Assembly: GCA_903831305.1 (NCBI GenBank)
Contig: CAIKXE010000004.1
Location: forward strand, 147,524-211,523
Reading direction: 5' to 3'
DNA from: an uncultured bacterium
GTDB lineage: Bacteria > Patescibacteriota > Minisyncoccia > Phycocordibacterales > GWA1-40-21
Length of the DNA stretch: 64,000 bases
The notes beneath the pieces were generated by a model. It saw nothing but the letters and a program-made list of their open reading frames with translations. It was not told the DNA's origin and did not search any database. Of this stretch, positions 19,201-58,947 are shown piece by piece; position 1 is the stretch's first letter, and every line of letters begins with the position of its first letter. The position numbers were made by a program, and so were the translations under genes.

Positions 19201-19224
19201 GTGCTGGTTATCCACTTTTTTGGT

Positions 19225-36872: not shown

Positions 36873-37223
36873 TTATTTATAAACTATTTGAAGTTTTTTC
36901 TCTGTCGTCTTACCAAAGCGGTCGCGGGCCTCTAGATCTAGGATATTATAGCCATAGGATAGTAAAATCTTTTCTGAGAAGCGGCCGCTTTCATCTACCA
37001 CTATCGGCCGGTCATTTAGGGTGATTTCTTTGGTGTTTTTACCCTGTCCCTCGATAGAAATCAGGGATTCTGATACGGATACACCATTTTCGGGAGAGAA
37101 AATTGTTATTTGAGGTCCCGTCGCATATTTCCACACCTCAAAAATACTATAACCAAAAAGACAGATTAAAAATAGGGTGATGATAATGACTTTGAAATAA
37201 AATTTTGTTTCGCGTCTGGACAT
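36873..37223 (-). CDS. Hypothetical membrane-anchored protein
   Basis: 116 aa, N-terminal TM helix then a beta-rich domain. Start is 9 nt after the ftsK stop. Confidence 0.35.
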   Translation of the reverse strand: MSRRETKFYFKVIIITLFLICLFGYSIFEVWKYATGPQITIFSPENGVSVSESLISIEGQGKNTKEITLNDRPIVVDESGRFSEKILLSYGYNILDLEARDRFGKTTEKKLQIVYK

Positions 37224-39926: not shown

Positions 39927-40664
39927 ATGTTAGACCAAAACAAACAACAGAATAGCCTTCATAGTACTGGTGTTGGCCAGTCTAATACAGCGACCTTGGA
40001 CTGCATATTTTTAAAGGACAATCCAAAGTCCGCTTATCAGTATAAAAAGACAGAGAAGTTAGTATCAGCCATATATCTACTTTCCAATTTTGTCTCAGAC
40101 AAAGAGCCCCTCAAATGGCAGCTACGAGAGACCGCTTTAGAGCTAGTTTCTGTCTCTTTTGATCAGACTAAAATTGTGCCGGTTATTCTTCGTCTTATGT
40201 CTATACTGCAGGTGGCCAGAATCAGCGGGATTGTCTCCGAGATGAATTTTAGTATCCTCAAGTATGAGTTTGATTTGCTGGCTAGGGCAGCTGAGGAAGG
40301 CGGTAACAGTGGTGCTCAGGGGGTAATCTTTCCAGATCATTTTTTTACAGTAGAAAAACCCACTGAAGACAATAGTAGTGTTAATTTTCCTAAAGGACAT
40401 CAGGTACTGTCTGATAGGTTGTCCATTAGAAATAGTCAGGATAATGTCCGGACTCAGGAGGTAAAACACCAGGATAAATCTAACAGACAGGATTTAATTA
40501 TTTCCTTATTACGTAAGAATAGTGAGCTCGGAATAAAGGACTTCACTTTGTCCATCAAGGACTGCAGTGAAAAGACTATCCAGCGAGAATTGGTCGCTCT
40601 AGTGTCTAAAGGACAGGTTAAAAAAGTGGGGGAAAAGCGCTGGTCTAGGTATAGCCTTAAATAA
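39927..40664 (+). CDS. Hypothetical protein with C-terminal winged-helix DNA-binding domain (putative regulator)
   Basis: C-terminal ~60 aa DLIISLLRKNSELGIKDFTL…TIQRELVALVSKGQVKKVG resemble a DeoR/wHTH fold. N-terminal domain unknown. Confidence 0.4.
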   Translation: MLDQNKQQNSLHSTGVGQSNTATLDCIFLKDNPKSAYQYKKTEKLVSAIYLLSNFVSDKEPLKWQLRETALELVSVSFDQTKIVPVILRLMSILQVARISGIVSEMNFSILKYEFDLLARAAEEGGNSGAQGVIFPDHFFTVEKPTEDNSSVNFPKGHQVLSDRLSIRNSQDNVRTQEVKHQDKSNRQDLIISLLRKNSELGIKDFTLSIKDCSEKTIQRELVALVSKGQVKKVGEKRWSRYSLK

Positions 40665-41514
40665 TAGGCCTTCGTCGAACCATCTTCCTTTGGAGGGGCT
40701 TTTGAGCCTGACTGAGGTGAAAACGGAGAATTTTTTTAGCAGAAAAAATTCGTACCAGGGATATGGATGTGGTGAGAAAGAAGGCTGGTAAGGATTGGCA
40801 GAAGAAATAGGGGAAAAGGGTTGCTTTTTACCCCATAATATGCTATCCTTTCCCCTGTGGATTATGGCTCTTTATTGAGTTATCCACAGCCCCTATTTTG
40901 CTTATTTCCTAAGTAAAATATATAATACAGGGACAAGTAGTGTTAGCACCATTTTGTGCTATACTATTTATACCTTATACGAGTGATCTTTGATAAATAA
41001 ATAGAGTCGTAAATCACTGAAATTTCTTTTTCTATTACGCTGTTATAGATTGAATTTCCTTTCCATTCTTATCACTACAATTTCGCTGTTCTTATGTCGA
41101 AATCTTGAGTGCTGGATACTTAAAACAAATATTTATTTTGCCCTTTGTGTTTGTTTTTGGTATCCAGTGCTTGAGATAATATCTGAGCACGAAATATAGT
41201 TTGAAATTATGATAATCATCAGTTTGATATTTTAAAGTGATTATCGGAAAGCGGAGGGTAACAAGCAGGTCAAATTATGTTTGTCATCTTTCGTGAAGGA
41301 TAAAAATATTTTTCTTTGTGAATCGTCAGATTCATCAAAGGAGGTTCGGCCAGTTTTTAGTCGAAACTATGCCGACCATTTCTTAATAAAAAAAATTAAG
41401 AAATGTAGTTTATAAAAATGATCTCTTCTCACATTATTAAATTTTATTAGTTAAGTAGAAGAAATCATTGACTCACTTCTTTACGGAAGGGAGATAATTA
41501 AAAAATTATAAATC

Positions 41515-43569
41515 ATGTCTAAAAAATTATTGAGCGTCGGTATCGTTATGGTACTTGTCGCTGCAGTATTAGTCGGAGTTCCTGCTGCTAAGGCACAGAC
41601 CGTGTCTTGCGCAAACATTGACGCTATGTTGACAGTTCTCGGTATCACCGATGCTGCTAAGGTAGCTCAAGCTAAGTTGGCTTTTGGTTGCGGTGCTACC
41701 GCTCCTGCTGCTGCTTACACCTTTACTAGAGATTTGACCATTGGTTCAACTGGTGCTGATGTTACCGCCCTACAAACATTGTTAGGCGTTACCCCAGCTA
41801 CTGGTTACTTTGGTGCTATCACCAAGGCCGCTGTTGTTGCATACCAGACTTCAAAGGGTATCTCAGCTACCGGTTATGTTGGTCCTTTGACTAGAGCTGC
41901 ATTAAATGCAGGAGTCACTACCACCACCACAACCACAACCACTACCACTACTTGCCCAGCCGGTTATACTTGTACTTCAAATACTACAAGTGGAACTACT
42001 GGTTTGACTGGTGGAGCTGGTGATATTACTGTCACTGAAAAATCATCAGGAACAGAAAATGAGGTTCTCGAGGGAGCTACCGAGAAGGTTCTTGGGGTTC
42101 AAATCGAGGCTGAGGGTTCTGATATCTCCGTTACATCTATAAAGGTGGAACTGGAAAATGATGGTACTGGCTCACAAAGATTGAGCAAGTATATCGATAC
42201 TGTTGAAGTTGTGTTTGACGGTAAGGTTGTTGGTTCTGCTGATGCTAGCGATTTCTCTGAGAGTTCAGATGTATATTCAAAGAGCATCGCTTTGTCAGGA
42301 GTTGTCGTAGGTGAGAATGAAACAGGAAGACTTTATGTTTCTGTTTCATCTGTCGATAATATCGACAGCACTGATATAACTAATGCTTCCTGGGAAGTTG
42401 CCACTGATCAAATAAGATTTCAGGATGCAACCGGTGCTATCTTAACTAATACCACTGGTGAAGGAGTAAATGGTTCAATTACTGAAACAATTACTTTCAC
42501 TGATCTTCTTTCTTCTGGAAACGTTGAACTTAAAGTTAGCGAGGGTAATTCCGGTGTCAATGATACACACAATGTATCTGTTGATGATTCAAGCGACACA
42601 AACAACGTTGACGTTTTGAGCTTTAAGCTTAAGGCTGATGGCTCAGACATTGCTCTTCAGACTTTGTCATTTGGTGTCACTTCTAACAGTGGTACTGGTG
42701 TAACTGAAATTGCAAATGACTTCAGACTTATGATGGAGGACACAGAAGTTGGTACAGCTATATTAGACTTAAATTGTTCTGGTGGTACCAATGATGGGTT
42801 TGCTTCTACAACGGATGAAGCTATTTGTATTATTGTTAATAATCTAGATGATGATGATGTCGTCATCTCTGCTGGTGATACTGTTGATTTTACTTTGGTA
42901 GCTGATATCAATGATATTGACGGTGCATTTGTTAGCGGTAATGATTTGTCAGTTACTTTGAACGCAGACGTAACTCTGAGCTCAAATGGTCATGTTATCG
43001 CTGAGGATGAAAATGGTGATACTTTGACGACAGGTGAATTATCTGGTAGTGCAGACAGCACAACCATTAATTTCTTGTCAACTGGTATTTCTGTTACTGT
43101 AGTTAGTACTACAGCAGCTATTGATGCTGTTCAAGGTGATGTTGCAACTGATGACAAGGGTATCTACACTGTAGTATTTGATGTTGCTGCTATCGAGGAT
43201 GATGCTTATGTTGAATTAGGCTCAGCTACAAAGGGTGTTACAGAGAGCAATACTGGTGTAAACTTTGTTATGCAAGATACTGCAAGTGGTTATGCTGCCA
43301 CAAGCACTGGTGCTATTTCTCTATCAGAAGTTACTCGAGTAAGTGGAGGTACTCTAAGTGGAGAATTTGTTAAGATTGGAGCTGGCTCAACCGCTAGATT
43401 CCAGTTACAAGTTACCTTTGATCCTGCCCACACAACTGGTACTTCAGAAGGTTACAGAATGTATATGTACTCTGTAAACTCTGCTGCTTCAGCTGTAGAT
43501 GCTACTGCTCAACAGGTATTAACTCCTGAAGTAGATTACAGAACTGGTGCCAAGACAATTGGTAACTAA
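41515..43569 (+). CDS. Secreted/cell-wall-associated protein with two PG_binding_1 peptidoglycan-binding repeats, poly-Thr linker and large beta-rich domain
   Basis: Signal/TM at the N-terminus, DLTIGSTGADVTALQTLLGV…GYFGAITKAAVVAYQ…GYVGPLTRAAL (PGBD), a TTTTTTTTTTTT linker, then ~500 aa rich in T/S/G/V/D. Confidence 0.6.
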   Translation: MSKKLLSVGIVMVLVAAVLVGVPAAKAQTVSCANIDAMLTVLGITDAAKVAQAKLAFGCGATAPAAAYTFTRDLTIGSTGADVTALQTLLGVTPATGYFGAITKAAVVAYQTSKGISATGYVGPLTRAALNAGVTTTTTTTTTTTTCPAGYTCTSNTTSGTTGLTGGAGDITVTEKSSGTENEVLEGATEKVLGVQIEAEGSDISVTSIKVELENDGTGSQRLSKYIDTVEVVFDGKVVGSADASDFSESSDVYSKSIALSGVVVGENETGRLYVSVSSVDNIDSTDITNASWEVATDQIRFQDATGAILTNTTGEGVNGSITETITFTDLLSSGNVELKVSEGNSGVNDTHNVSVDDSSDTNNVDVLSFKLKADGSDIALQTLSFGVTSNSGTGVTEIANDFRLMMEDTEVGTAILDLNCSGGTNDGFASTTDEAICIIVNNLDDDDVVISAGDTVDFTLVADINDIDGAFVSGNDLSVTLNADVTLSSNGHVIAEDENGDTLTTGELSGSADSTTINFLSTGISVTVVSTTAAIDAVQGDVATDDKGIYTVVFDVAAIEDDAYVELGSATKGVTESNTGVNFVMQDTASGYAATSTGAISLSEVTRVSGGTLSGEFVKIGAGSTARFQLQVTFDPAHTTGTSEGYRMYMYSVNSAASAVDATAQQVLTPEVDYRTGAKTIGN

Positions 43570-43611
43570 CTAATTTAGTTAAATCTGGTCTAATACGCCT
43601 TACAAAGTATT

Positions 43612-43640
43612 TCAAAAACCACCCCACAAGGGTGGTTTTT
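43612..43640 (+). terminator. Rho-independent terminator
   Basis: aaaaaccaccccacaagggtggtttttgtg. Confidence 0.55.
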
Positions 43641-43892
43641 GTGTTGGAACAATGTTCAAAATGTCTCAAATATTTTGGTCCATCAATCTCCGCTTTAGAT
43701 AAGGCGGAGTGTCATTCTTATGACGAGGCGGTGTGATTTTACCTGTGGATAACTATTGTCGTTGCGTATTGATATGTTAATCTATTAAAGATATAATATA
43801 TAGGTGTCTTGTGTTTTATTATTAAAATATGAGGAAGTAATTTAGTCGATTATTTTTCCTTTTAAATTTATTTTATTATTAGCATTATTAAT

Positions 43893-46664
43893 TTGTTTAT
43901 TATGAATAAAAAACTTAGTTTATCTCTCGTCGCCTTGGTGCTACTTATCTCTGGTTTTATTGGAGCCTTTAAAGCCGAGGCGGCAATCAGCACCGTTACA
44001 GTCACTTCTCCTAATACAGCTGTATCATGGAGTGGAACCAATGAAATAACCTGGACCACTAGCCCCGCTCTTGATGCTGAAACGGTTAATATCTACTATT
44101 GTACGGGTGCTGATTGCGGTTCTAACATTTATACTGAAATTATTTCTGGTACGGCTAATGACGGTAGTTACCTTTGGAATACAGACCCAGCCGGAGGGGA
44201 CGCCGCTACTTATAAAATTAGAGTTGGTGCTTCATCTGAGCCGGTTTTAAGAGGGGATAATTCAGACGTGACTTTTACTGTTGATAATACCCACCCTACT
44301 ACGACAATCGGTTCTATTGATATTTCAGCTGACACAGGATCGAGTGCTACAGACTTTATAACACAAACCGCAAGCCAAACAATTACCGGTACCCTTAGTC
44401 AGGCCTTAGTTGCCGGTGAAATATTATATGGATCTGTAGACGGTGGTTCAAACTGGACTAATATTACAGCCAAGGCTACCAGTACTTCTCCTTACTTGGC
44501 TATAAGCTGGAATGGTGCCACATTGTCTGGAACCAGCACAATCAAAATGAAAGTTACTGATGCGGCTGGTAATGATGGTACCGTCGCCGAGCAAGCATAC
44601 ACCTTAGATACTACTGTTCCTACCATTACTTCTGTTACTGGTACCACTGTTGCAGGCGGTGGGGATGTAATTGTAATTAATTTTAGCGAAACTATTCATC
44701 CAGCTTCTAACTGGCCAGCGGCGTTTACCAGCATTACAAGTAATGGTGTATCTTTAGATTTTAGTAGCACAACCGGTAATTTTTCTTTTAATGGTGGTGA
44801 TTATGTAACCTTGACTCTATTAGAGAGTCCCACAAATACGGCTACTTATTTAAGAAACGGTAACACCATAGTAGTAACCCCTAAGATAAGTGAAATTCAT
44901 GATTTGGCTGATAATTATGTTGCCATTACCGCTATAACTAGTTCAGCCACTACCACTGGTGATGTCACTGCCCCAGCTGTGGCTTTAACTTATTCACCTG
45001 ATGCTACTACCTATAAGGCTGGAGATTCTGTCACTATCACCGCCACTTTTAATGAAGCTATTCATGAGGCCGTCTTACCAACTATCGCCATTGCGACCTT
45101 GGGAGATGGTAGCCAAGTAGCTACAAATATGTCTAGAACTTCAAATACTGTTTATACTTATGTTTGGACGGTGCCAGCCGGGGCGGATGAGAATGGAACA
45201 TCCACCGTCAGTATCATAGCTACAGACCTCGCCGGAAATGCTAATGCTACAGCTACAAATAATACAAAACAAGTTGATAACACTGCACCCGCTATTACTT
45301 CTGTTACTGGTACTACTGTTCAAGGGGGAGGAGACGTCATTGTAATTAATTTTAGCGAAACTATTCATCCAGCTTCTAACTGGCCAGCAGCTTTTACTAG
45401 TATCACAAGTAATGGCATATCTTTAGATTTTAGTAGCACAACCGGTAATTTTTCTTTTAATGGTGGTAATTATGTAACCTTGACTCTATTAGAGAGCCCA
45501 ACAAATACAGCTACTTATTTACGAAACGGTAACACCATAATAGTAACCCCTAAGGTAAGTGAAATTCATGACGTGGCAAATAACTATGTCGCCATTACTG
45601 CTACCACTAGTGCGGCAATAACTGGAAATGATACCACGGCTCCAGCTGTGGCCTTGACTTACTCACCAAACACTAATTCCTATGTGGCTGGTGCTGTTGC
45701 TACTATTACCGCCACCTTTGCGGAATCTCTCTTTGATTCAGTAGTTCCTCATATCGCTATTTCAACCCAGGGAGACGGGGATGTTTCCGCTGTTGATATG
45801 ACCAAGGTTTCTAATACTATTTATACTTATGTTTGGACGGTACCGTCTGGTGTGGACGAAGATGGATTAGCAACAATAACTATCTCTAATGCAACAGATC
45901 TAGCTGGTAATACTAACGCTACCGCTACCAATAACACCAAGACAATTGATGCTGTGGCGTCAATTGTAGATTCATTTACCGTTGAGGATATTACTTCAAC
46001 CGGTGGTACTTTGACAGTTCAGACAAATAAGATATCCACTTGTAACTATTCTAATGTAGATAGTTCATATGCCAGTATGTTGGCTATGGCCTCTACCACT
46101 AATGTCACTACCCATACCAAGATATTGACGGGCTTGACTCCAGGTACCCGTTATGATTACTATGTGCGTTGCCAAGATAACGCTCTAAATACCATGGTGA
46201 GTTCAGCTCACGTGTCTTTTGTCACTTCTGGTGGTACTGGTAGCTTTGGAATTGAGCGCGTGACAAATATTACTAATCAGACAACTGGTGGTGTCGCTGA
46301 TGGCACTTATCCAAATGGCTGGGAGTGGAAAATAAGGATTACTCTACCAACTGATCAAAATTACTTTGCTTTGAAGTTCAATAACTGGACCTCAGGTTCA
46401 AACACCTTAACGGCGGCTGGTAATATGAAATATTATTCAGAACAAATCGCCTCTGGCCCTGGTAGTTCAGCTGAATTAGCGGTTCCGTTTGCCACGGCCA
46501 ATACCTTTCCTACTAATCTAAGAGTTACCACTGATGTGGATCCATTTTTGCCAGGAATACAGACTGATGTTCACGTCATGGTAAAGCTTCCAAGTAATAC
46601 AGTAGCTGGTTCATATGGAACTAGTTATTGGGTAAACTATGAAGGCATATCAGAGCCACTATAA
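43893..46664 (+). CDS. Large secreted surface protein with tandem Ig-like (Big-type) repeat domains
   Basis: Signal peptide then repeated modules. Two ~225-aa tandem copies (TSVTGTTV(A/Q)GGGDVIVINFSETIHPASNWPAAFTSITSNG…) are near-identical. Confidence 0.55.
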   Translation: MFIMNKKLSLSLVALVLLISGFIGAFKAEAAISTVTVTSPNTAVSWSGTNEITWTTSPALDAETVNIYYCTGADCGSNIYTEIISGTANDGSYLWNTDPAGGDAATYKIRVGASSEPVLRGDNSDVTFTVDNTHPTTTIGSIDISADTGSSATDFITQTASQTITGTLSQALVAGEILYGSVDGGSNWTNITAKATSTSPYLAISWNGATLSGTSTIKMKVTDAAGNDGTVAEQAYTLDTTVPTITSVTGTTVAGGGDVIVINFSETIHPASNWPAAFTSITSNGVSLDFSSTTGNFSFNGGDYVTLTLLESPTNTATYLRNGNTIVVTPKISEIHDLADNYVAITAITSSATTTGDVTAPAVALTYSPDATTYKAGDSVTITATFNEAIHEAVLPTIAIATLGDGSQVATNMSRTSNTVYTYVWTVPAGADENGTSTVSIIATDLAGNANATATNNTKQVDNTAPAITSVTGTTVQGGGDVIVINFSETIHPASNWPAAFTSITSNGISLDFSSTTGNFSFNGGNYVTLTLLESPTNTATYLRNGNTIIVTPKVSEIHDVANNYVAITATTSAAITGNDTTAPAVALTYSPNTNSYVAGAVATITATFAESLFDSVVPHIAISTQGDGDVSAVDMTKVSNTIYTYVWTVPSGVDEDGLATITISNATDLAGNTNATATNNTKTIDAVASIVDSFTVEDITSTGGTLTVQTNKISTCNYSNVDSSYASMLAMASTTNVTTHTKILTGLTPGTRYDYYVRCQDNALNTMVSSAHVSFVTSGGTGSFGIERVTNITNQTTGGVADGTYPNGWEWKIRITLPTDQNYFALKFNNWTSGSNTLTAAGNMKYYSEQIASGPGSSAELAVPFATANTFPTNLRVTTDVDPFLPGIQTDVHVMVKLPSNTVAGSYGTSYWVNYEGISEPL
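44620..45960 (+). repeat. Tandem direct repeat (~670 bp x2) inside the surface-protein gene
   Basis: The 44640-44880 and 45310-45550 stretches are >90% identical at nucleotide level (…attgtaattaattttagcgaaactattcatccagcttctaactggccagc…), then diverge towards the 3' part of each unit. Confidence 0.6.
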
Positions 46665-46726
46665 TCAGCTAATTAGGATTTAAGCAGGGCTAGCCCAGTG
46701 TTAACTCTGCTAAAAATCTAAAAAAT

Positions 46727-47398
46727 ATGAAAACAAAGAATAAAATATTAATTAGTCTTGCTGTAGTTATGCTCATAGTATCAGCTAGTGTGGCATCAGT
46801 GTCAGCTACAGTAAGCTCAGAACAAAATTTGAATTCTAGTTTAGAGAGCGGACTAACAGGGGATGTTCATAATTGTTCTCCTTTGACTGTTGCCAATGGA
46901 TCAGTGGCTGCTTATCCCACCTGCACCATAACCTGTAATTCAGGTTATTCTTTAAGCGGGATCTCTTGTCTTGCTCGCAGTAGTGGAAGTAGTGGAGGAG
47001 GGGGTGGTGGAGGGTCAGGCAACACTTTTGTAGCAACAACGACCGTTACGACTACTGGAGGGGGCTCAGCTCGTGCTGGATACCAGTTTAATAATGACCT
47101 CGGGATCGGTTCAACTGGTACGGATGTAGTAGAATTGCAGAAAATATTAGTAGCTGGGGGTTATTTAGTAATGCCAGCTGGGGTCGCTATGGGGACTTAT
47201 GGACCAATGACGGTGGCCGCTGTCCGCGCTTACCAATTAGCTAATGGTTTGCCTTCCGTGGGGGTTGTGGGGCCACAAACCAGAGCTAAATTAAATGGTG
47301 GTGGTATGTCAACCGGGGCCTTTATTGACCTCCTTCTGCTACTTGGTATCATTTCTCCAGATAAGGCGGCATCTGCCAGACTTATTCTTGGTTTATAA
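46727..47398 (+). CDS. Small secreted protein with Gly-rich linker and C-terminal PG_binding_1 domain
   Basis: Signal peptide, GSSGGGGGGGSG linker, then LGIGSTGTDVVELQKIL…GTYGPMTVAAVRAYQLANGLPSVGVVGPQTRAKL. Confidence 0.55.
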   Translation: MKTKNKILISLAVVMLIVSASVASVSATVSSEQNLNSSLESGLTGDVHNCSPLTVANGSVAAYPTCTITCNSGYSLSGISCLARSSGSSGGGGGGGSGNTFVATTTVTTTGGGSARAGYQFNNDLGIGSTGTDVVELQKILVAGGYLVMPAGVAMGTYGPMTVAAVRAYQLANGLPSVGVVGPQTRAKLNGGGMSTGAFIDLLLLLGIISPDKAASARLILGL

Positions 47399-47469: not shown

Positions 47470-48258
47470 TTAGAAAAAAGATTTAATTAGCCTCAGTTTT
47501 GCCCAGATGATGGCGGAAAACCAGCCCGGATACCGGCCAAAGTTTCTAATGATTATTTTATAGTGATTCCAAGCCATAATTACTTTTCTTTTCTGTGAAA
47601 TACTGCCCGAGTGCCTAGTATAGGCAGTGGTAATTTTAACCAGATTCTTCATTTTACCTAGTCGGCCGAGTCTCAGAAAGAGGTCCAAGTCTTCCACACA
47701 GGATAGTCTCTCGTCATAACCACCTGCTTTTGTTATAAGCTCCTGGCGGATTAAGACACTGGAGTGGGGGATTTGATTATCTTTTAGAATATTTTCTCGG
47801 ATTATCTGATCCTCAATAGCAAAATTAGTCTCTTTAATGAGGTCACCTTTTTCATTTATTATTCTGATATTTGAGCCAATCAAGGCATAGTCAGAATTTT
47901 GCTCTAAAAAGTCATATTGTTTCTGTAATTTATCATTATCCAGCCAATAATCATCACTATCTAGGACAGCGATATACTGGCCAGGAGCTAGTTTCAAGGC
48001 CTTATTTCTATTAGCAGAAATACCTAAAGCTGGTGAGTTTTTATAATACTTTATCCGGCTATCATTGACTGTGTAAGAGGCCACAATGGCCTCTGTAGCA
48101 TCCTTAGAATCATCATCGGAGACTATGAGCTCCCAGTCTGTAAAGGACTGTTTTTGGGCACTTTCAAGGGCTTGGGCTATGAAGTCAGCCCTATTTCTAG
48201 TGACGGTTATAATACTAATTTTTGGTTTTATATTTGTATCCATGTGATTTCTGATCAT
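47470..48258 (-). CDS. Family 2 glycosyltransferase
   Basis: ISIITVTRNRADFIAQALESAQKQSF…ELIVSDDDSKD (GT-A fold, DxD). Confidence 0.8.
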   Translation of the reverse strand: MIRNHMDTNIKPKISIITVTRNRADFIAQALESAQKQSFTDWELIVSDDDSKDATEAIVASYTVNDSRIKYYKNSPALGISANRNKALKLAPGQYIAVLDSDDYWLDNDKLQKQYDFLEQNSDYALIGSNIRIINEKGDLIKETNFAIEDQIIRENILKDNQIPHSSVLIRQELITKAGGYDERLSCVEDLDLFLRLGRLGKMKNLVKITTAYTRHSGSISQKRKVIMAWNHYKIIIRNFGRYPGWFSAIIWAKLRLIKSFF

Positions 48259-48269
48259 ACTGACAAGTA

Positions 48270-49109
48270 TTAAATTTTAATCCACTCTGGTGGCAGTAAA
48301 TTTGCGTATTCTTTTTGATGGAAGTTATTCCATTTCTTGGGTGCGATTACTATTTTATTTGGATTTTGATTTAGCCAAGCTATCCAAAAAGTAAAACTAC
48401 TGTTTGCAATAATATTGTGTTTGCATTTAGTTGCAATCATGAAATTATCGTAGACAGGGATATTAGCGTCAGAAAATATAATTGGTAAATCAGTTTTTAA
48501 ATTAATTTTGCACCATTCAATATCATCAGAAAAAATGAACAAAGTAGGGCTGGGCACCTTTTCTTTTATTAATCTAAGGGCTTTTTCATAATATTCAATA
48601 TTAAATGTTATCCACTCCTTCGCAAATTTTGGATTACTAACATAATCTCCTCTACGAACTCCTACATAAACTGAATTAGTATTTTCTATTTCTGATATAA
48701 TACCATATTTTTTAATAGTATTATCCTTCAGTGATACCTCCCTCAGAAGTTCACTCCGTATGGGCTCAAGGTATTTATAGCTTTGCCAATATCCTTCCAT
48801 ATAACCACTTTTGCTTTTTAGTAATCTAGGGATATATCCGATATTAAATGATCTTAAGACTTTTGTTTTAGCTAGCTCCAAGATTCTTGAAACTACCCCA
48901 AGTGGGTACCCTACTTTTTTAAGTTCCTCGTCCGAGGCTATCTCTACTTCTGTGTTTAAATAGCCAAGAAAATATTCTCTTATGCTATCATTCTTGTTTA
49001 CGAGGAATTTATATTTTACTTCAACATTATTTTTAACAGACAAAAGCCTCCCAAAAGAATATTGAAATAACTGGTTTCCAGGCCCACCACGTAATCGTAT
49101 TATTATCAT
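48270..49109 (-). CDS. Alpha-1,2-fucosyltransferase (GT11 family)
   Basis: N-terminal motif IIRLRGGPGNQLFQYSFG (GT11 signature GGLGNQMFQYA). Start set at the internal MIIIRL so as not to overlap the upstream gene. Confidence 0.7.
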   Translation of the reverse strand: MIIIRLRGGPGNQLFQYSFGRLLSVKNNVEVKYKFLVNKNDSIREYFLGYLNTEVEIASDEELKKVGYPLGVVSRILELAKTKVLRSFNIGYIPRLLKSKSGYMEGYWQSYKYLEPIRSELLREVSLKDNTIKKYGIISEIENTNSVYVGVRRGDYVSNPKFAKEWITFNIEYYEKALRLIKEKVPSPTLFIFSDDIEWCKINLKTDLPIIFSDANIPVYDNFMIATKCKHNIIANSSFTFWIAWLNQNPNKIVIAPKKWNNFHQKEYANLLPPEWIKI

Positions 49110-49114
49110 AGTGA

Positions 49115-50155
49115 TTATTTTTTTAAGATAGTCCTTTTTATTAAAATAACTTTTTTGGCTATGTTTTTTAGGTAAAAATATATTTTGTAGTGTAACCTTG
49201 CCGTCCTCCACTTTTTGTTATTTTTTATTTTTTCATCCAGACCGGTTTTATATGATATTCCCTGATATTTTTCAAAGAAGTTTATAAATTCCAGAGTCTG
49301 CTTTTCTAAACTTAAATTTTCGATTATGTATTTTCTTGGCTCAAAACTTGACCAGTTCTCTTCCATCTTATGTATTGAATTCTCAATCTCCTTCATGTTT
49401 TTTGTCTTTATCCCACACCTGTCATCAAAATAATATGCAGAAGTTGTATCCGAATATAGTAGCTCGGCTGGTGTGTATATCTTTTCCTCTTTATTTGTTG
49501 GTACCCAGTGTCCAATATTTAAAACGTCCCAGACTAAAATGGGGACGTTCATGGAAAGAGCCTCCTCCAATGCAATACCTTGACTCTCCTGTCTTCCAAG
49601 CCAAATAAGGTATTTTGTATTTCTTAGCTTTTCTATGTAGTCACTTTGTTTGTATGAACCATAAATAATTATTTCATGTTTGATTTCTAATTCATTTAGT
49701 ATTTTTTTAATATGCTCTAACTCACTGTCGTATCTTTGTTTAAAATATATTAAAACAATACCATTGGTTGGTTTTTGTCTCTCGGAAAATTCATATGTAT
49801 CAATTCCTACTGGCCAATAGACAAAAGGACATTTGTTAAATCCAAAACTTCTCCAGACACCAGCTGACCATTTTGAGGGTTGGATGTATATAAGGTTAGA
49901 AAAATTAATGTCCACGGGGATATTTCTCGGAAGTATGTAAAGATTTGGGCCAACAACTGCCTTAATCTTTTTCTTTGATACCTCCCTCAGAGCTTCAACA
50001 TCATCGTGTATCCACAATTGCGATGTTGTATCTAGGGCTCTGTTAATACAATAGGGGTAATTTAAGAGATCAAGACCTTTTATTAAATTTGTAGCTACTT
50101 TTTGTGGTCCCGAAGTATAACCAGACGCGACCGATTTTGAAATTATATTTATCAT
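49115..50155 (-). CDS. Putative GT-B (GT4-like) glycosyltransferase
   Basis: C-terminal E-x7-E-like region ESQGIALEEALSMNVPILVWD. N-terminus not diagnostic. Confidence 0.45.
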   Translation of the reverse strand: MINIISKSVASGYTSGPQKVATNLIKGLDLLNYPYCINRALDTTSQLWIHDDVEALREVSKKKIKAVVGPNLYILPRNIPVDINFSNLIYIQPSKWSAGVWRSFGFNKCPFVYWPVGIDTYEFSERQKPTNGIVLIYFKQRYDSELEHIKKILNELEIKHEIIIYGSYKQSDYIEKLRNTKYLIWLGRQESQGIALEEALSMNVPILVWDVLNIGHWVPTNKEEKIYTPAELLYSDTTSAYYFDDRCGIKTKNMKEIENSIHKMEENWSSFEPRKYIIENLSLEKQTLEFINFFEKYQGISYKTGLDEKIKNNKKWRTARLHYKIYFYLKNIAKKVILIKRTILKK

Positions 50156-50252
50156 GCTTTTGTTAAAATCTAAAAATATATTATTTTTAAGTTTAGCACG
50201 TTTTTAGCCTTAGGACTAGAAATTAGTCACTGTTTTGTGTTAGTATGTATGA

Positions 50253-51245
50253 ATGGATAGAGTAACAAAAAGATGTTCGCTTTGTAATAGTTTGGCCAAA
50301 CTGGAGTATCAAAATATGAAAGGGTATATAGAGAATTCTCGTTTTGACATATACAGTTGTACTGTTTGCGAGGCTTCGTTTGCAGACCCATTAAAATCTG
50401 ATGAAAAGATATATAATTATATTTATAAGCAGGCAGAAAGAGTGCCTGGGTATGAAAGATATTTTAGATTTTCAAAACTTGCTAAAAAAGTTATAAATCC
50501 ATTATGGTATTTGTGTAATGCGGAAGGTGTATATTGGTCTGTAAGAGAAGCATTACAGAAAAACTTTCAAGAGCAAAAGAATATCTCTATTCTTGAAGTG
50601 GGTAGTGGTTTGGGGTATCTAACATATAGCCTAAATACGGCCGGATATAAAACAACCGGTGTTGATATTTCTGAAGATGCCATACTTAAGGCAAAGAAGT
50701 ATTATGGAGATTTTTATGAGGTCGGGAATATATTTAAATTAGCAGAAGCAAGAATAAAAAAATATGACTGTGTTATTATGACAGAAATAGTTGAACATGT
50801 GGAAGACCCAAGAGGTTTTATTCAAGCATGTTTATCTCTTTTGAAGAGCGGTGGTAAATTAATACTGACCACACCTAATAAGTCTGCAACTCCAGCTGGG
50901 ACTATTTGGCAAGGGGATATACCATCTGTTCATTTGTGGTTTCTGGCGGAAAAAAGCATTTTAAAAATGGCAGAGAGTTTAGGAAGGAGATGCGAATTTA
51001 TTGATTTTACTGAATATTCAAGAATGTATTATACTCCAAGTCGTGTATATTCAATGGACGAGATTCAATCAGAAGCTCCTCGTCTTTCGAAAAATGGTCA
51101 AATTTTTCCTGGCAGGGAAGCAGGTCGAATAAAATCGTTCTTTTTTGGTTTAAAAGTTAGATATTGGCTATCATATATTAGAAGGAGACTCAAGGTAAAA
51201 CAAGTATCTCATCGCACGATTAATCTATGCGCTGTTCTTTCTTAG
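50253..51245 (+). CDS. Class I SAM-dependent methyltransferase with N-terminal Cys4 zinc-ribbon
   Basis: CSLCNS…CTVCE ribbon, then motif I ILEVGSGLGYLT and post-I/II motifs (DCVIMTEIVEHVEDP). Confidence 0.7.
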   Translation: MDRVTKRCSLCNSLAKLEYQNMKGYIENSRFDIYSCTVCEASFADPLKSDEKIYNYIYKQAERVPGYERYFRFSKLAKKVINPLWYLCNAEGVYWSVREALQKNFQEQKNISILEVGSGLGYLTYSLNTAGYKTTGVDISEDAILKAKKYYGDFYEVGNIFKLAEARIKKYDCVIMTEIVEHVEDPRGFIQACLSLLKSGGKLILTTPNKSATPAGTIWQGDIPSVHLWFLAEKSILKMAESLGRRCEFIDFTEYSRMYYTPSRVYSMDEIQSEAPRLSKNGQIFPGREAGRIKSFFFGLKVRYWLSYIRRRLKVKQVSHRTINLCAVLS

Positions 51246-51312
51246 TTTTTAACGGTTATGAGTATCATTTTTTAATAAAACCTAAATATACTTTATAAAT
51301 AATATCAATAAC

Positions 51313-52011
51313 ATGAACTTAATCACCATTATAAAGAAAAGTATACCCAAGTCTTTGTTTGAACCAGGTAAGAGAATTTTTCACTTTTTTTCAGACAAAA
51401 AAATATATACAAATTTTAATGTGAGAACTATTTACATGGGACATCAAAAAACTACATATCGAGGTATCAAGGCCATCAAGTGTCCATTTGATTATGTTAT
51501 ATACCAAATGATTATTTCTGAATTAAAACCTGATTTAGTTATTGAGATCGGGACTCATAGTGGTGGGGGTGCACTATACTTGGCCGACCTTCTTACTGTT
51601 ATTGGTAATGGGGTTGTTCATACTATTGACATAGCTCCAATTTCAGATAATTTACCAGCTAGTCACCCTAGAATAAAGTTTTTTACAAAAGGGTGGGAGG
51701 GTTATGATTTAAAAGAGACAGAGGGTTTTTGTAAAATATTGGTTATTGAGGACGGTGCTCATACGTATGAACACTCTATTGGTGCAATAAAGAAGTTTTC
51801 TCCACTTGTATCTGTCGGGTCATACCTTATAGTTGAGGATGGGATACTTGATGAACTTGGTATGAAAAAGAGTTATAACGGAGGTCCGGTGAGAGCCATA
51901 GAGGAGTTTTTGAAGATTAATAAGGACTTTGTTATTGATAGAGAAAGATGTGATTTTTTTGGCAAGAACGCGACTTTTAATGTAAATGGCTACCTTAAAA
52001 GAATAAAATAA
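51313..52011 (+). CDS. CmcI/cephalosporin-hydroxylase-family methyltransferase (sugar O-methyltransferase-like)
   Basis: KCPFDYVIYQMIISELKPDLVIEIGTHSGGGALYLADL is characteristic of the CmcI family. Confidence 0.6.
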   Translation: MNLITIIKKSIPKSLFEPGKRIFHFFSDKKIYTNFNVRTIYMGHQKTTYRGIKAIKCPFDYVIYQMIISELKPDLVIEIGTHSGGGALYLADLLTVIGNGVVHTIDIAPISDNLPASHPRIKFFTKGWEGYDLKETEGFCKILVIEDGAHTYEHSIGAIKKFSPLVSVGSYLIVEDGILDELGMKKSYNGGPVRAIEEFLKINKDFVIDRERCDFFGKNATFNVNGYLKRIK

Positions 52012-52012
52012 C

Positions 52013-52960
52013 TTGATGAAAACATTTCCTCCGCTAACAGTTTTGTTTAAAGGTCTGATAACTTTTATTCCGGGAGCTTATAAGATTTTTTGCAAGGGTA
52101 CTGGTGGAACAATTTCCTCTCGATATTGTTATTCTGTCTGGATGAGACATCTAGTGGTAACACAGGGTGCTAGAAATGGTATTATGCCAAAAGTCGTTGG
52201 TGAACTCGGGCCAGGGGACTCTATCGGTATTGGTCTCGCAAGTTTGCTTTCTGGGGTGGAAAAATACTTTGCATTGGATGTGGTTAAACACATAGATGTA
52301 AAAAGAAATTTAAAGATCCTTGAAGAATTGGTTGTTATGTTTAAAAACAAAGAGCGAATTCCTGATAAAAAGGAATTTCCAAATATTATACCATTGCTTG
52401 ATAATTATGATTTTCCTTCTAACATTCTTACCAGTGAGATTTTGTTTACGTCGTTAGCAGACAAGAAATTAAAACAAATTAGGAAAAGTGTTAGCAATAA
52501 TGCTTCTATGGAGCCTATGATCTCATATTTTGCTCCATGGGATGATAAAAATATTATTTCTCCCGGCGTGGCTGATATGATTTTCTCACAATTTGTGTTA
52601 GAGCATGTCAATGACCTAGAGAAATCCTATGGTGCGATGTTTACCTGGCTAAAATTTGGTGGTGTTCTTTCCAATGTTATTGATTTCCAATGCCATGGTA
52701 CATCTAGTGAGTGGAATGGTCACTGGTTGTATTCTAAATTATTATGGAAACTCATTGTTGGTGGAAGGTCGTTTCTTTTGAATAGACAGCCCGCTCAGTT
52801 TCATATAGATATTTTGGAGAGAAATAAATTTAAGGTTTTGAAAACAGAGCGGTTTTATAGAGAGTCAAAGATTTCTATAAAATCTTTGGCCGCAGAATAC
52901 GCTACTATTAGTTACGGTGATTTACAAACAACCATGATTTATATGCAGGCTGTGAAATAA
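52013..52960 (+). CDS. Putative SAM-dependent methyltransferase
   Basis: LGPGDSIGIGLASLL (motif I-like) and FSQFVLEHVNDL (motif II/III-like). Weak. Confidence 0.45.
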   Translation: MMKTFPPLTVLFKGLITFIPGAYKIFCKGTGGTISSRYCYSVWMRHLVVTQGARNGIMPKVVGELGPGDSIGIGLASLLSGVEKYFALDVVKHIDVKRNLKILEELVVMFKNKERIPDKKEFPNIIPLLDNYDFPSNILTSEILFTSLADKKLKQIRKSVSNNASMEPMISYFAPWDDKNIISPGVADMIFSQFVLEHVNDLEKSYGAMFTWLKFGGVLSNVIDFQCHGTSSEWNGHWLYSKLLWKLIVGGRSFLLNRQPAQFHIDILERNKFKVLKTERFYRESKISIKSLAAEYATISYGDLQTTMIYMQAVK

Positions 52961-52983
52961 GCAAATTTCTGAAAAGATTTTTT

Positions 52984-54414
52984 TTAAAAGTTTATGAAAG
53001 TTCCATCGACGCTTACATATCCACTTAACCCTTGTTCATTAAGAATTTTGTAGCCAGTCATCTCTTTTTTAAAAGTTTTTTCTAGCATGAGTTTATTATT
53101 CATAGCTATATTTAGGGTGCAAAGCCAAACTGCAAAGTCTTTTTTATTTATCTTATAAAAACAAGTGATCAAAATACCCGCATCAGTTCTAAACATTGAA
53201 TCATTATTTTCCCATCTATCCCAATCAAACTTTTCATTTAGCCAATATCTGCCAGAAATTTTAAAGATATTTTGGTAGAGGGGTAGGGCTATTATTTGCA
53301 ACCCTTTATAAATCATAGTGCCTTCCGCAATGTTTTTATATTTTCCATCGATCTTTTTCCTTAATTGATCTGTACCTCCATCATATATATTTAAAAATAG
53401 ATCTGTTTTTTCCCTTATTTCTCTTTCCCACTCGGCTGTGATGGTGCTACCTTCAATGTGAAGGATAAAGGAATTGGGTATCTTTCTCAGGCTTTCTATC
53501 GTCTTTATTGTCTGGTCAAATCTTTCTTGTGCAGAAAAAACAGATCTTTTTTTGGTATAGTTTAGCGGGTTAGATGATATGTTTATTACTGAAGTAATAA
53601 TACATAGATTCTTCGGTTTATTTTTCATACTTTCTTTTAACTCACTAATCTGTGTTTCTATCGGTGGTAATTGAATATCGGACTCCAGGCATTTATTAAT
53701 AGCTTGTCCTGTAGCGTATGGTTCTATGTTTACATTTTTAGCATAAATTTTAAAAATAGTATTAATCAAATTATACTTATTTATAATTTCGTTCGTCCCG
53801 TATTGGTTTAATACTGGTGTGTTATTCCAGTCAATTATTATTTTTTCACAAATTTTACACCACTGTCTAGTCGTTATCCCGTTCCAGTAGTGATCAGTGT
53901 AGCCCCTTATTGTGCCTTGGGCTGAGAGAGCCCAGTCTAAAAGTGAAACTTTGTTTTCTGATAGCTCATGGCCAATAATTGAAGTACGGATTATCTTGGT
54001 ATTCTTAAACTTCTTTTCTATCTGTTCTGATATATATGCTTTACTTTTACCATAAGGATCTACCGCATCCCGCTTACTGTTTTTGCTGTATTTTTTACTA
54101 ATACCTAAATTTCCTGAAAACTCACAGTCGGTCGATGGGTGAATGACCTTCTTTCCGAGTGTTTCAAGGAATATCGGTAAATCAATATTTAATTCTTTGT
54201 ATTTTTTTGGCTGATTAGAATATTTTTGTGGGGTAGCACCAATACAATTAATAATAAAATCCGCATCCGTCGATAATAGTTTTTTATTAAATTCTATATC
54301 TCCCCACCTCTCATTCAATATATATAAGGTGTATTTTTGGTAATATTGGGAAAAATATCTAAAAACTTCACTGCCCAACATTCCTTTGTGTCCCAGAATC
54401 ATTAATCTAATCAT
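52984..54414 (-). CDS. Fusion protein: N-terminal RmlD-like NAD(P)-dependent sugar-nucleotide reductase/epimerase domain plus C-terminal ~270-aa domain of unknown function
   Basis: MILGHKGMLGSEV… Rossmann start typical of dTDP-4-dehydrorhamnose reductase-like enzymes. The C-terminal half (from ~aa 200) has no recognised motifs. Confidence 0.5.
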   Translation of the reverse strand: MIRLMILGHKGMLGSEVFRYFSQYYQKYTLYILNERWGDIEFNKKLLSTDADFIINCIGATPQKYSNQPKKYKELNIDLPIFLETLGKKVIHPSTDCEFSGNLGISKKYSKNSKRDAVDPYGKSKAYISEQIEKKFKNTKIIRTSIIGHELSENKVSLLDWALSAQGTIRGYTDHYWNGITTRQWCKICEKIIIDWNNTPVLNQYGTNEIINKYNLINTIFKIYAKNVNIEPYATGQAINKCLESDIQLPPIETQISELKESMKNKPKNLCIITSVINISSNPLNYTKKRSVFSAQERFDQTIKTIESLRKIPNSFILHIEGSTITAEWEREIREKTDLFLNIYDGGTDQLRKKIDGKYKNIAEGTMIYKGLQIIALPLYQNIFKISGRYWLNEKFDWDRWENNDSMFRTDAGILITCFYKINKKDFAVWLCTLNIAMNNKLMLEKTFKKEMTGYKILNEQGLSGYVSVDGTFINF

Positions 54415-55355
54415 ATTGAAGGTTTGAAATACTTATACTTAGACAATATTTTATTTAGTTCCTCTTTTGATACACAGTGGTCTCTGGAGTCAAACACCTT
54501 TTGTGCTGTGAGCGTCTTTCTCTCGGATATATTTTTGTAGTGAATTAAGAAAAAATCCTTTTTCTTCACATATGTTACCCTGTTTGTTTCGTATGGTGAA
54601 ATCATTTGCTCATGATCCTTCTCTGATATACGAGGGGAGCCATTTACCCACCTTAGACCAAATTTTTCTTTGTATATTTCAAAGAGATCTAGTAATTTGA
54701 AAGCTTTAAGATTTGGAACAATATTATATCCTGTATAATTTACAGCAATTTCAACACAATCAATGGCTTGTTCGACGTCTATCATGAAGCGTGTCATTTC
54801 TTCTGAATATAGTTTTACTGGGTAGTTATTTTTAATTGAGTCCCAAATTAAAGGGATGATAGAACCTGTAGAATTTAAGACATTTCCATATATTACTGAA
54901 GATAATTTAGTAGATTCATTTTCAGCGTTTAGGATGAAGGCTTCACCTGCCACAAACTTCATTGCCCCATAAAGTGTGGTTGGGCACCTACTTTTATCTG
55001 AAGAAATAAATATACCAGCCTTAAGTTTGTTTTGTATTGCTGCCCTTCTAGAGTTAAAAGCACCATGTATAATAATTTCTAACGCTTCCTCGGGGTTCTC
55101 ATCTACCGCGCCTATTTGTTTCATTGATGCAGCAAAAATACCTATTGTGTGACCGCGAATACTCTTTTCCAGTAGTTCGTAATTTCTGACATCCCCAATT
55201 ATACAGTTAATTCTTGGAAATTGTTTCTTTATATAATAGTGTTTTGCCTCATCCCTGCTGAATATTGTAATTTCGTTTTTGTCGTAGAACCTTTTAATAA
55301 GGTTTTTACCTAAATACCCTGCACCACCTGTGATAAATATTTTTTCATTCTTCAT
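54411..55355 (-). CDS. Polysacc_synt_2-family sugar-nucleotide 4,6-dehydratase/epimerase (PseB/CapD/FlaA1-like)
   Basis: IFITGGAGYLGKNLIKRF…IFSRDEAKH. SDR extended family with the characteristic short spacing. Confidence 0.75.
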   Translation of the reverse strand: MKNEKIFITGGAGYLGKNLIKRFYDKNEITIFSRDEAKHYYIKKQFPRINCIIGDVRNYELLEKSIRGHTIGIFAASMKQIGAVDENPEEALEIIIHGAFNSRRAAIQNKLKAGIFISSDKSRCPTTLYGAMKFVAGEAFILNAENESTKLSSVIYGNVLNSTGSIIPLIWDSIKNNYPVKLYSEEMTRFMIDVEQAIDCVEIAVNYTGYNIVPNLKAFKLLDLFEIYKEKFGLRWVNGSPRISEKDHEQMISPYETNRVTYVKKKDFFLIHYKNISERKTLTAQKVFDSRDHCVSKEELNKILSKYKYFKPSI

Positions 55356-55368
55356 ATTTGTAAATATT

Positions 55369-56253
55369 TTAATTAATAAACTTTTTTAAAAACCTGACAA
55401 TCGGTACACTATATGGTATGAACTTTATAATTTGCTTTGCTGCTATTAATGTGGTTGTTTCTTTAATTTTGTATTCAGGCCACTTCTTAAGGTAATGCTT
55501 ATAAAATCTTTGGTAGTAATTATTATAAAACCTACACCAGGGCTTATATCCAGTAGTGTAGTGTAAAATAATTGGATCTGGCTTGACTCTGGTCTGACTC
55601 CTGTCTACTTGCAGGTTCCACTTCTTTTCTAACGGCAACCATTTATCTATACATAGAAAGTTTAGCACATCTTGGTCAGCGTAAATTAGCTCCTTAGAGT
55701 GTTTTTTTACGAATTCGATTGCTTTCGCTGTAAAGTCTTCCTGCCTCATTTTATCTAAATTCATAAGTAAAATTCCACTATTAAAATATTTTTTAATATA
55801 TTTAAAAAATGGACAATTCATTTTTAGTACTTGTTCCGCCACACTGTCTTCTACTGCGGCCAATAAATAGCAATCTAAACTATTTTCATATAAACCCTCA
55901 ATGTTTCCTATTACCAACGTGTCACAGTCTATGTAGATACATTTTTCTACATCTTTTAATATATCTGGAATACAAAGTCTGTAATAGGCGGGCAAAGTAT
56001 AATAGTACATTTGTGGAAAATCAGCAAAAATCTCAGTATTAACCTTAATAAAATTTATTTTTGTTTTATATATTTTGCCAATGTTTGTTAGTTTGACCTT
56101 GTTTTCATCTTTAATATCCCCATCAAGAATATTAATTATTAGCTGGTACTTATCTGATTGGAAGTTATCAAGCAAAGAATGCATAGAAACACCTAGCGGC
56201 TGAGAATAATTATCGTCAGAGGAATATACAATATTAATATCTTTTTTATTCAT
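55369..56253 (-). CDS. Family 8 glycosyltransferase (LPS alpha-1,3-galactosyl/glucosyltransferase-like)
   Basis: NIVYSSDDNYSQPLGVSMHSLL and DxD YIDCDTLV. Confidence 0.75.
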   Translation of the reverse strand: MNKKDINIVYSSDDNYSQPLGVSMHSLLDNFQSDKYQLIINILDGDIKDENKVKLTNIGKIYKTKINFIKVNTEIFADFPQMYYYTLPAYYRLCIPDILKDVEKCIYIDCDTLVIGNIEGLYENSLDCYLLAAVEDSVAEQVLKMNCPFFKYIKKYFNSGILLMNLDKMRQEDFTAKAIEFVKKHSKELIYADQDVLNFLCIDKWLPLEKKWNLQVDRSQTRVKPDPIILHYTTGYKPWCRFYNNYYQRFYKHYLKKWPEYKIKETTTLIAAKQIIKFIPYSVPIVRFLKKFIN

Positions 56254-58945: not shown

Positions 58946-58947
58946 AG

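Follow-up and report, generated by a model that had tools for sequence, protein, structure and literature searches.

To our knowledge, no surface-layer (S-layer) protein of the Candidate Phyla Radiation (CPR) has been identified experimentally. Two S-layer types have been predicted for Patescibacteria with AlphaFold-Multimer, and the 2024 preprint that proposes them describes one type with six immunoglobulin (Ig) domains (1130–1270 aa) and a short one with three, about 640–730 aa in length. The short type is exemplified by GMX57981.1 of Yanofskybacteria (692 aa), UMX47672.1 of Nealsonbacteria DGGOD1a (727 aa) and A0A1G2QP48 of Vogelbacteria (643 aa), and its predicted p6 lattice of 13.5 nm agrees with a 13-nm lattice seen by cryo-electron microscopy on groundwater cells (10.1101/2024.05.28.596244). 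The 692-aa protein is the same as PMX_810_sub_00350 of Ca. Yanofskyibacterium, which is listed among the proteins with a signal peptide and a peptidoglycan-binding domain (PGBD) that rank in the top five by expression for genes of unknown function; the log2 value is 16.7, against 7–12 for its neighbours (PMC10936435). Its strand carries an HTH_DeoR gene farther upstream, with an extracytoplasmic function (ECF) sigma factor gene and a DUF5667 gene in between (PMC10936435). Here we describe a locus in 64,000 nucleotides of contig CAIKXE010000004.1 from an uncultured patescibacterium (the window). Its gene P1 (41515–43569, + strand, 684 aa) very probably encodes a major wall-anchored envelope protein, and is the best S-layer candidate.

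P1 is the first of three consecutive + strand open reading frames (ORFs), which are present as the original prediction had described them. The second, P2 (to 46664, + strand), encodes 920 aa from an ATG at 43902 or 923 aa from a TTG at 43893, and metagenome gene callers choose the ATG. The third, P3 (46727–47398, + strand), encodes a small PGBD protein of 223 aa. The signal peptides claimed for all three were judged by eye: each protein begins with a Sec-type stretch that has basic residues, a core of hydrophobic ones and a cleavage site resembling AxA. By inspection, the cleavage sites are AKA↓QT, AEA↓AI and VSA↓TV in P1, P2 and P3 respectively.

The domains of P1 were delimited with Pfam and with an AlphaFold2 (AF2) model built on 73 homologues, which has a mean pLDDT of 86.7. 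The signal peptide (aa 1–28) is followed in the model by a helical hairpin, two helices closed by Cys32–Cys59, and by a three-helix PGBD (aa 63–133, nucleotides 41701–41913). Next come a disordered linker (aa 134–163) with a poly-Thr run and a CPAGYTC mini-motif, and three beta-sandwich domains, D1 (aa 164–332), D2 (333–522) and D3 (523–684). Two PGBD repeats had been claimed, of which only one was found: PF01471 (PG_binding_1) matches P1 in a single stretch, aa 83–130, with an E-value of 5.5e-10, and aa 32–56, ahead of the PGBD, form the two-helix hairpin. The poly-Thr linker is there as a 13-residue run (aa 134–146). What follows it is beta-rich, as had been said, and forms three domains in the model, not one huge domain.

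When P1 was used in a profile search of PDB sequences, the PGBD alone had relatives, hydrolases among them. Foldseek against the PDB returned strings of Ig-like domains at low TM-scores and no enzyme fold, the matches including integrin alpha legs, PrgB, antigen I/II C-terminal domains and MSCRAMMs. No catalytic Pfam domain (amidase, peptidase, muramidase or transglycosylase) was found in P1 or P3, so neither appears to be a PG_binding_1 hydrolase. An LPXTG motif and a C-terminal membrane helix are absent from both P1 (ending in ...DYRTGAKTIGN) and P2 (ending in ...NYEGISEPL). With a pI of 4.05, P1 is an acidic protein. Thr (14%), Val (11%) and Ala (10.5%) abound in it, as do Gly, Ser and Asp, whereas it has few residues of Cys, His, Met and Trp. 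Its effective number of codons, 39.4, is the lowest of the 54 genes of the window and about 10 below expectation for its G+C content at third codon positions (GC3) of 0.27, although the low value is partly confounded by that low GC3. P1 may be highly expressed in the source organism.

P1 belongs to a very large and uniform family. A word-index search returned 593 relatives; the best 120 of these were 459–755 aa long, with 114 falling within 600–755 aa, and PF01471 was present in 114 of them. Relatives with names come from Paceibacterota, Parcubacteria, Vogelbacteria, Kaiserbacteria and the 'Patescibacteria group'. When 1.84 billion cluster representatives were searched with a profile, 3,534 P1-family clusters (50% identity) were obtained at E<=1e-30, and the top 150 clusters were all 609–749 aa long and aligned end to end. 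The 73 aligned homologues span 624–755 aa, with a median of 659. Among them conservation falls in the order PGBD, D1, D2, D3, and it reaches 80% or more at 14 acidic positions. The most changeable part is the hypervariable linker, which may be poly-Thr, Pro/Thr, Gly/Ser or poly-Asp, with small Cys motifs in some members. Many surface proteins of Paceibacteria have small disulfide motifs, of the form CPxGYxC or (P)AGCTSxxGFSxTTGxxC, in the low-complexity linkers that adjoin their PGBDs; they were found at aa 147–153 of P1, in the linkers of proteins P0029, P0037 and P0054, and within 680–2266 and 5707–6465 of related locus L028.

The resemblance of P1 to the short three-Ig type lies in its taxon (Paceibacteria/Parcubacteria), its length, which is within the range, its signal peptide and its three Ig-like domains. 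It also shares the PGBD, present in PMX_810_sub_00350 as well, and an HTH_DeoR-type gene upstream on the same strand; it differs from the Yanofskyibacterium arrangement in the ECF sigma factor and DUF5667 genes that intervene there. The match is one of architecture, length, taxon and neighbours, not of sequence comparison, and the S-layer assignment of the short type is itself a computational prediction supported by transcript abundance. P1 also has in common with Haloferax volcanii csg and the six-Ig Patescibacteria candidates the strings of Ig domains which, in the preprint, are proposed for p6 'pyramid' lattices (10.1101/2024.05.28.596244), and differs from them in having three domains and a PGBD anchor. 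P2, with about eight domains, falls outside the numerous six-Ig family and has two close full-length relatives.

Our reading of P1 as a major wall-anchored envelope protein therefore draws on its signal peptide, PGBD, three Ig-like domains, low pI and composition, and on the strongest codon bias in the window, a huge and uniform family and the match to a predicted short S-layer type. P1 would be exported by the Sec pathway, its signal peptide cleaved, and the PG_binding_1 domain would hold it non-covalently on peptidoglycan. The variable low-complexity linker would span the wall and the three beta-sandwich domains would project outward, most likely as a short S-layer protein self-assembling into a hexagonal lattice of the kind observed on such cells, and its conserved Asp-rich loops may serve as Ca2+ sites. 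P1 appears to be a new member of the family to which computation had already assigned the role of short S-layer protein of Patescibacteria, and on that point our analysis adds little. What it adds is a conserved genomic address, a promoter box with a companion helix-turn-helix (HTH) gene, and a cargo hot spot between P1 and rplJ.

A 14-sequence P1 alignment returned 15 loci from genomes and 13 from metagenomes; related loci are referred to below by L numbers. The gene order ftsK (− strand), a gene of about 240 codons, P1 and rplJ-rplL recurs in approximately 30 non-redundant loci, and is kept even where P1 identity falls to 30%. In the 17 loci that reach rplJ, the gap between P1 and rplJ is 0.36–4.2 kb and holds no sugar locus. 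In the source organism rplJ lies about 1.1 kb past the end of the window, and the gap is approximately 21.5 kb. Within it lie P2 and P3, the sugar locus and genes for a ComEA-like, a HEPN and a lamin-tail-domain protein. The interval thus has the look of a hypervariable slot, a hot spot for surface-decoration cargo. The slot after P1 in L008 (12201–14868) contains four toxin genes of the PemK family together with a NYN gene, a further sign that it gathers mobile or accessory cargo.

The gene preceding P1 in the window, up245 (39927–40664, + strand, 245 aa), encodes a putative transcription factor in which a low-complexity linker separates a helical domain at the N-terminus from a DeoR-type winged-helix HTH at the C-terminus. 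PF08220 (HTH_DeoR) is matched by 10 of 16 members of the up245 family, with a best E-value of 5.8e-7, the window copy falling below threshold; no relatives were found among PDB sequences. Of the 26 non-redundant loci with enough flanking sequence, 24 have the gene immediately before the P1 homologue and in the same orientation.

Between up245 and P1 lies the AT-rich non-coding region that had been noted before, 850 bp in length (40665–41514), with a GC content of 0.334 against 0.400 for the window. The promoter, start and leader given here are predictions from sequence. The predicted promoter core (40898–40926, + strand) consists of a −35-like TTGCTT (40898–40903), a 17-nt spacer and a −10 TATAAT (40921–40926). 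With a start near 40933, the leader would be about 580 nt long, and the 850-bp region is best read as the P1 promoter together with this leader. At the predicted 5′ end of the leader is a stem-loop (40935–40969, + strand) with a stem of about 14 bp, which may have a role in mRNA stability; the fold of 40930–41060 has an energy of −28.9 kcal/mol (z = −2.83 against shuffles). An intrinsic terminator, recognised by sequence and fold, follows P1 at 43614–43641 (+ strand, AAAAACCACCC-CACAA-GGGTGGTTTTTG), and P1 is for that reason predicted to be a monocistronic unit.

Just before the −35 element is the 9-mer TTATCCACA (40880–40888, + strand), at approximately −52 to −44 relative to the predicted start. 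This sequence is identical to the bacterial DnaA-box consensus. An imperfect inverted copy, TAATCCACA (40856–40864, − strand), lies 15 nt upstream of the perfect box and is not conserved in the other loci. In 20 non-redundant loci the perfect 9-mer stands on the P1 strand in the interval that separates up245 from P1, and L012 and L026 have single-mismatch variants, TTGTCCACA and CTATCCACA, at the corresponding position; TTGTCCACA is the form seen in a higher-GC relative. L009 and L025, two P1 loci without the upstream gene, have no box. Alignment of the P1 upstream regions revealed no broad conservation, the 9-mer and the promoter hexamers alone being conserved. In most loci the layout is the same: box, 5–8 nt, TTTGC(A/T), about 17 nt and a TATAAT-like −10, with 29–34 nt from box to −10.

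TTATCCACA boxes occurred 35 times in 393 kb of non-redundant sequence, compared with approximately 3 expected, and 27 of the 35 were intergenic though intergenic DNA makes up only 21%. The window contains five, against 0.76 expected. Few of its 20 intergenic regions carry a box, which suggests that the box is operator-like and not a general promoter feature. Its most likely binder is either DnaA or the product of the adjacent HTH_DeoR-like gene. DnaA boxes serve as transcription-factor sites at promoters, as in the DnaA regulons of E. coli and B. subtilis. The P1 box resembles these in being exactly TTATCCACA and in standing as a single box beside a sigma-70-type promoter, but it is always accompanied by an HTH_DeoR-like gene, whose product may be the real binder. 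We know of no description of a DnaA box on the promoter of an S-layer gene, and a literature search found no paper pairing the TTATCCACA motif with CPR terms. The invariant box upstream of the P1 −10, with its partner HTH gene, seems to be new here. In the favoured explanation, P1 would be transcribed from a conserved strong promoter with the box just before the −35, through a long leader, to a terminator of its own.

Boxes were also seen at other places. In L012, tandem P1 paralogues of 690 and 679 aa occupy 10001–14346, and the short spacer upstream of the second copy has no box. In the window, a perfect TTATCCACA box at 61134–61142 (+ strand) lies 65 nt upstream of the ComEA-like HHH_3 gene (61199–61711), with no clear −10 at the usual distance. 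The 446-bp intergenic region (19161–19606) before an isoleucyl-tRNA synthetase (IleRS) gene contains a one-mismatch box, TTATCCACT (19208–19216), 32 nt before a perfect TATAAT. This is the geometry of the P1 promoter, followed by a leader of about 360 nt. Rfam detected no T-box or other family upstream of the IleRS gene, nor any in the whole window, and no tRNA genes were found in the window.

The P2–P3 promoter region (43744–43797, + strand) has an inverted TTATCCACA box (43744–43752, − strand), a −35 TTGATA (43769–43774) and a −10 TATAAT (43792–43797). In L028 a + strand box precedes the P2 homologue, 29 nt before a TATAAT. P2 had been described as carrying Ig-like repeats, and this held: Pfam gave Ig-type matches (Big_13 and the FN3-like Pur_ac_phosph_N), all sub-threshold, and the all-beta AF2 model (pLDDT 76) shows approximately eight Ig/FN3-type beta-sandwich domains. 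The claim that all three proteins bear PG_binding_1 was wrong for P2, which had no PGBD match at E<=0.1 and in which no wall anchor was found. A fold search with P2 returned generic strings of Ig, FN3 and macroglobulin type, with the S-layer protein SbsC at rank 50, and revealed no ligand. P2 contains a recent internal tandem duplication with a period of 669 nt (44607–44906 against 45276–45575, 90% nucleotide identity over the first 300 nt), which implies a change of repeat number in a putative surface protein. Only two near full-length relatives were found, at about 60% identity; the other matches are single Ig domains shared with large adhesin-like proteins of many phyla.

P3 consists of a signal peptide, a conserved four-Cys module (aa 30–87), a Gly/Ser/Thr linker, a PGBD (aa 130–189) and a helical tail. 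Its Gly-rich linker and PG_binding_1 domain (E-value 3e-14, 50% identical to the PGBD of P1) are as first described, except that the PGBD is not strictly C-terminal, a helical tail of 30 residues following it. Relatives of P3 are few (37), and the first 87 residues, comprising signal peptide and four-Cys module, are 65–67% identical in proteins whose remainder differs. The C-terminal tail resembles the N-terminal hairpin of P1 (3 of 5000 shuffles score as well). A transmembrane-like segment considered at this end is better regarded as an amphipathic helical tail related to that hairpin. In L028 and L029, too, a P2-like gene has a P3-like one after it, which indicates that P2–P3 is a recurring pair. 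The partial ORF at the start of L028 matches the C-terminus of a P1 homologue at an E-value of 0.064, which is not significant. P2–P3 would then be an accessory pair, in which P2 is an anchorless Ig/FN3-repeat surface protein and the small PGBD protein P3 plausibly tethers it to the wall.

The sugar locus of about 13 kb that had been placed downstream is an island of 13.4 kb (47470–60896) with 14 genes in five orientation blocks, starting 3.9 kb downstream of P1. Six of its genes are of glycosyltransferase type: a GT2, two GT11 (fucosyltransferase family), a GT1/4-like, a GT8 and an RXYLT1_C-like gene. Five are of methyltransferase type, three of them with Pfam matches at thresholds (Methyltransf_23-type, CmcI-type and FkbM-type) and two identified by sequence motifs only. 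The island also encodes a PseB/FnlA-like 4,6-dehydratase, an RmlD-like reductase and a Wzx flippase (59553–60896), the last being its sole protein with predicted membrane helices. Its GC content is 0.29–0.38, compared with 0.42–0.46 for P1–P3 (0.42 for P1), and it is absent from all the other P1 loci examined. Two independent metagenome contigs bearing P1 end at approximately 59.5 kb, at the junction of 58948–59559 and the Wzx gene, where a further contig from the same sample begins; the breaks suggest strain variation, with coexisting strains having different island ends. We regard the locus as a compositionally foreign island, which would build a short, heavily methylated oligosaccharide containing fucose or another 6-deoxy sugar on a lipid carrier. 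Wzx would flip this oligosaccharide.

The glycan could be unrelated to P1–P3. It is possible, though short of probable, that the island makes a wall-linked or secreted polysaccharide, such as a secondary cell-wall polymer or a capsule-like glycan, and that it owes its position to a recombination hot spot. The foreign GC content, the variable slot and the coincidence with assembly breaks all speak for this. So do the similarities of the proteins: Wzx is most similar to exopolysaccharide, HfsF and teichuronic-acid flippases, in each case below curated cut-offs, and the GT8 to a lipopolysaccharide galactosyltransferase. Against it, no polymerase (Wzy or Wzy_C), LCP-type ligase, export or chain-length gene was found in the island. 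No priming phosphoglycosyl transferase (Bac_transf, Glycos_transf_4) was found there either. A Wzx with about six transferases and no polymerase or chain-length regulator fits a short oligosaccharide moved en bloc, and is equally consistent with O-glycosylation and with other acceptors.

The original prediction had taken P1–P3 and the sugar locus as one module producing a glycosylated S-layer. The oligosaccharide would be flipped by Wzx and O-linked en bloc to Thr/Ser-rich linkers, that of P1 and perhaps those of P2 and P3, by an O-oligosaccharyltransferase (OTase) encoded elsewhere in the genome. The comparison that invites this reading is with the slg clusters of Bacillales (Geobacillus stearothermophilus SgsE with WsaB and WsaP, and Paenibacillus alvei). 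In these, as here, an S-layer protein or candidate stands beside nucleotide-sugar enzymes, several glycosyltransferases, methyltransferases and an exporter of lipid-linked glycan, with Thr/Ser-rich regions available for O-glycosylation; Thr/Ser/Pro-rich linkers are indeed common in the P1 family. The P1 locus differs from slg clusters in its anchor, which is PG_binding_1 and not an S-layer homology (SLH) domain, in the absence from the window of equivalents of the Wzy_C-type OTase WsaB and of the initiating transferase WsaP, and in that the island is not conservedly linked to the S-layer gene across relatives. The search for an OTase or ligase covered annotated ORFs of at least 120 aa in the 64-kb window and genes called 10 kb past its right end, and found no gene for a Wzy, a Wzy_C/OTase, an LCP protein or a priming transferase in either.

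Wzy_C genes were found in the corresponding slot of relatives. Membrane proteins of about 660 aa with Wzy_C and TPR domains are encoded directly after P1 homologues in L021 and L022; another Wzy_C+TPR gene follows the P2–P3 pair beside a Wzx locus in L028, and a fourth lies 8 kb from the pair in L029. On the other side, about 30 P1 loci lack P2, P3 and the sugar genes, and the poly-Thr linker of P1 is not conserved, the poly-Asp or Gly-rich linkers of many homologues being unable to carry O-glycans. NxS/T sequons are not enriched in P1–P3. As P1 has a predicted promoter and terminator of its own and P2–P3 a separate predicted promoter, P1, the P2–P3 pair and the island would be three separate transcription units and not one module. 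Taken together with the differing GC content and the missing OTase or ligase, Wzy and priming transferase, these points leave the one-module reading unsupported, and we consider it improbable. Glycosylation of P1–P3 by the glycan of the island is thus unproven. The wall-anchored surface or S-layer reading survives for P1, and does not extend to P1–P3 plus sugar locus as a unit.

P1 might instead be an abundant peptidoglycan-anchored adhesin for host attachment, which is how the authors of the expression study read PGBD proteins (PMC10936435). We think this unlikely. In its favour, the nearest structural matches of P1 are adhesins (PrgB Ig domains, antigen I/II C-terminal domains, ClfB, SdrG and CNA); the outermost domain, D3, is the most variable, and some genomes, such as that of L012, have tandem paralogues. 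On the other hand, the P1 family is uniform in length, fixed in architecture, housekeeping in its neighbourhood and nearly universal, whereas host-specific adhesins vary in repeat number, as P2 does. By reading of the sequence, P1 has neither MSCRAMM ligand-binding features nor a sortase signal. The same architecture gave a p6 lattice in the predictions of the preprint (10.1101/2024.05.28.596244).

We therefore return to the explanation in which P1 is an S-layer protein and a core envelope gene of the class Paceibacteria (Patescibacteria), P2–P3 an accessory pair, the sugar locus a foreign island and the interval after P1 a variable slot. As a whole we consider it probable, and several observations weigh against it. 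In two of the three species of the expression study the preprint favours a six-Ig protein, yet PGBD proteins of 'similar structure' are highly expressed in them (PMC10936435; 10.1101/2024.05.28.596244). In some lineages, then, the P1 family might be an abundant anchor or adhesin and not the lattice. Foldseek matches, the best being adhesins and integrin legs, do not separate an S-layer protein from an adhesin, and the codon bias of P1 carries the GC3 confounding mentioned above. When the accessions of 10 P1-family members were looked up, none was GMX57981.1, UMX47672.1 or A0A1G2QP48. Finally, the Wzy_C+TPR genes near P1 or P2–P3 in four related loci mean that the glycan link may be real.

A last alternative, that the 850-bp region is a chromosomal replication origin with DnaA boxes and an AT-rich unwinding element, is highly improbable: a perfect DnaA-box consensus, its imperfect inverted copy, the AT-richness and the divergent transcription nearby at ftsK and up245 would suit an origin, but each locus has one conserved box in one orientation at a fixed 29–34 nt from the −10, which is promoter geometry and not a box cluster, conservation is lacking in the remainder of the region, the GC skew, positive to either side, tracks gene orientation, and genes at 1–34 kb would be head-on to replication from there, so that oriC identity was rejected on the single oriented box, the promoter geometry and the transcription-following skew.

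The envelope is central to attachment, feeding and phage resistance in ultra-small, host-dependent bacteria. With its fixed address (ftsK, HTH gene, P1, variable slot, rplJ), P1 should be locatable in any Paceibacteria genome. The invariant promoter box could be used for strong expression, for defining a regulon and for testing DnaA or the HTH factor as regulator. Strain-level variation of the surface, and the protein-glycosylation enzyme that is missing here, would most naturally be sought in the hypervariable slot next to P1, where glycan and adhesin cargo appears to be exchanged. A wider picture, which we offer as doubtful, joins these elements. A Paceibacteria S-layer gene would be under a dedicated, deeply conserved circuit, a DnaA-box-identical operator at about −48 with an invariably adjacent HTH_DeoR-like factor, which may couple the coat to replication or the cell cycle. 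The downstream slot would be a cassette-exchange site taking Wzy_C+TPR S-layer O-oligosaccharyltransferases, glycan islands and adhesin-plus-anchor pairs, and the methylated fucose-type glycan of the island would end on the Thr-rich linkers of P1 or P2. If the glycan link were demonstrated, this would be the first glycosylated S-layer system in the phylum.

Other genes of the window were noted in passing. The IleRS gene (19607–23140, + strand) encodes an isoleucyl-type class I tRNA synthetase of 1177 aa with a complete His_Phos_1 domain inside its catalytic domain (aa 506–671, E-value 2e-32), an unusual fusion. Between recA and ftsK, an ORF of about 116 aa (36873–37223, − strand) has a Glucodextran_B-like (beta-sandwich) match, and its position is kept in several of the related loci. 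The 642-aa protein encoded at 24452–26380 (+ strand) has a DUF11 repeat domain and is likely to be another surface protein. A ThyX-type thymidylate synthase ORF of 429 aa (10815–12104, + strand), in which the Thy1 domain spans only aa 16–208 and the C-terminal half has no assigned domain, sits in a row of nucleotide-metabolism genes: deaminase, kinase, Tmk, ThyX, SHMT and dUTPase.

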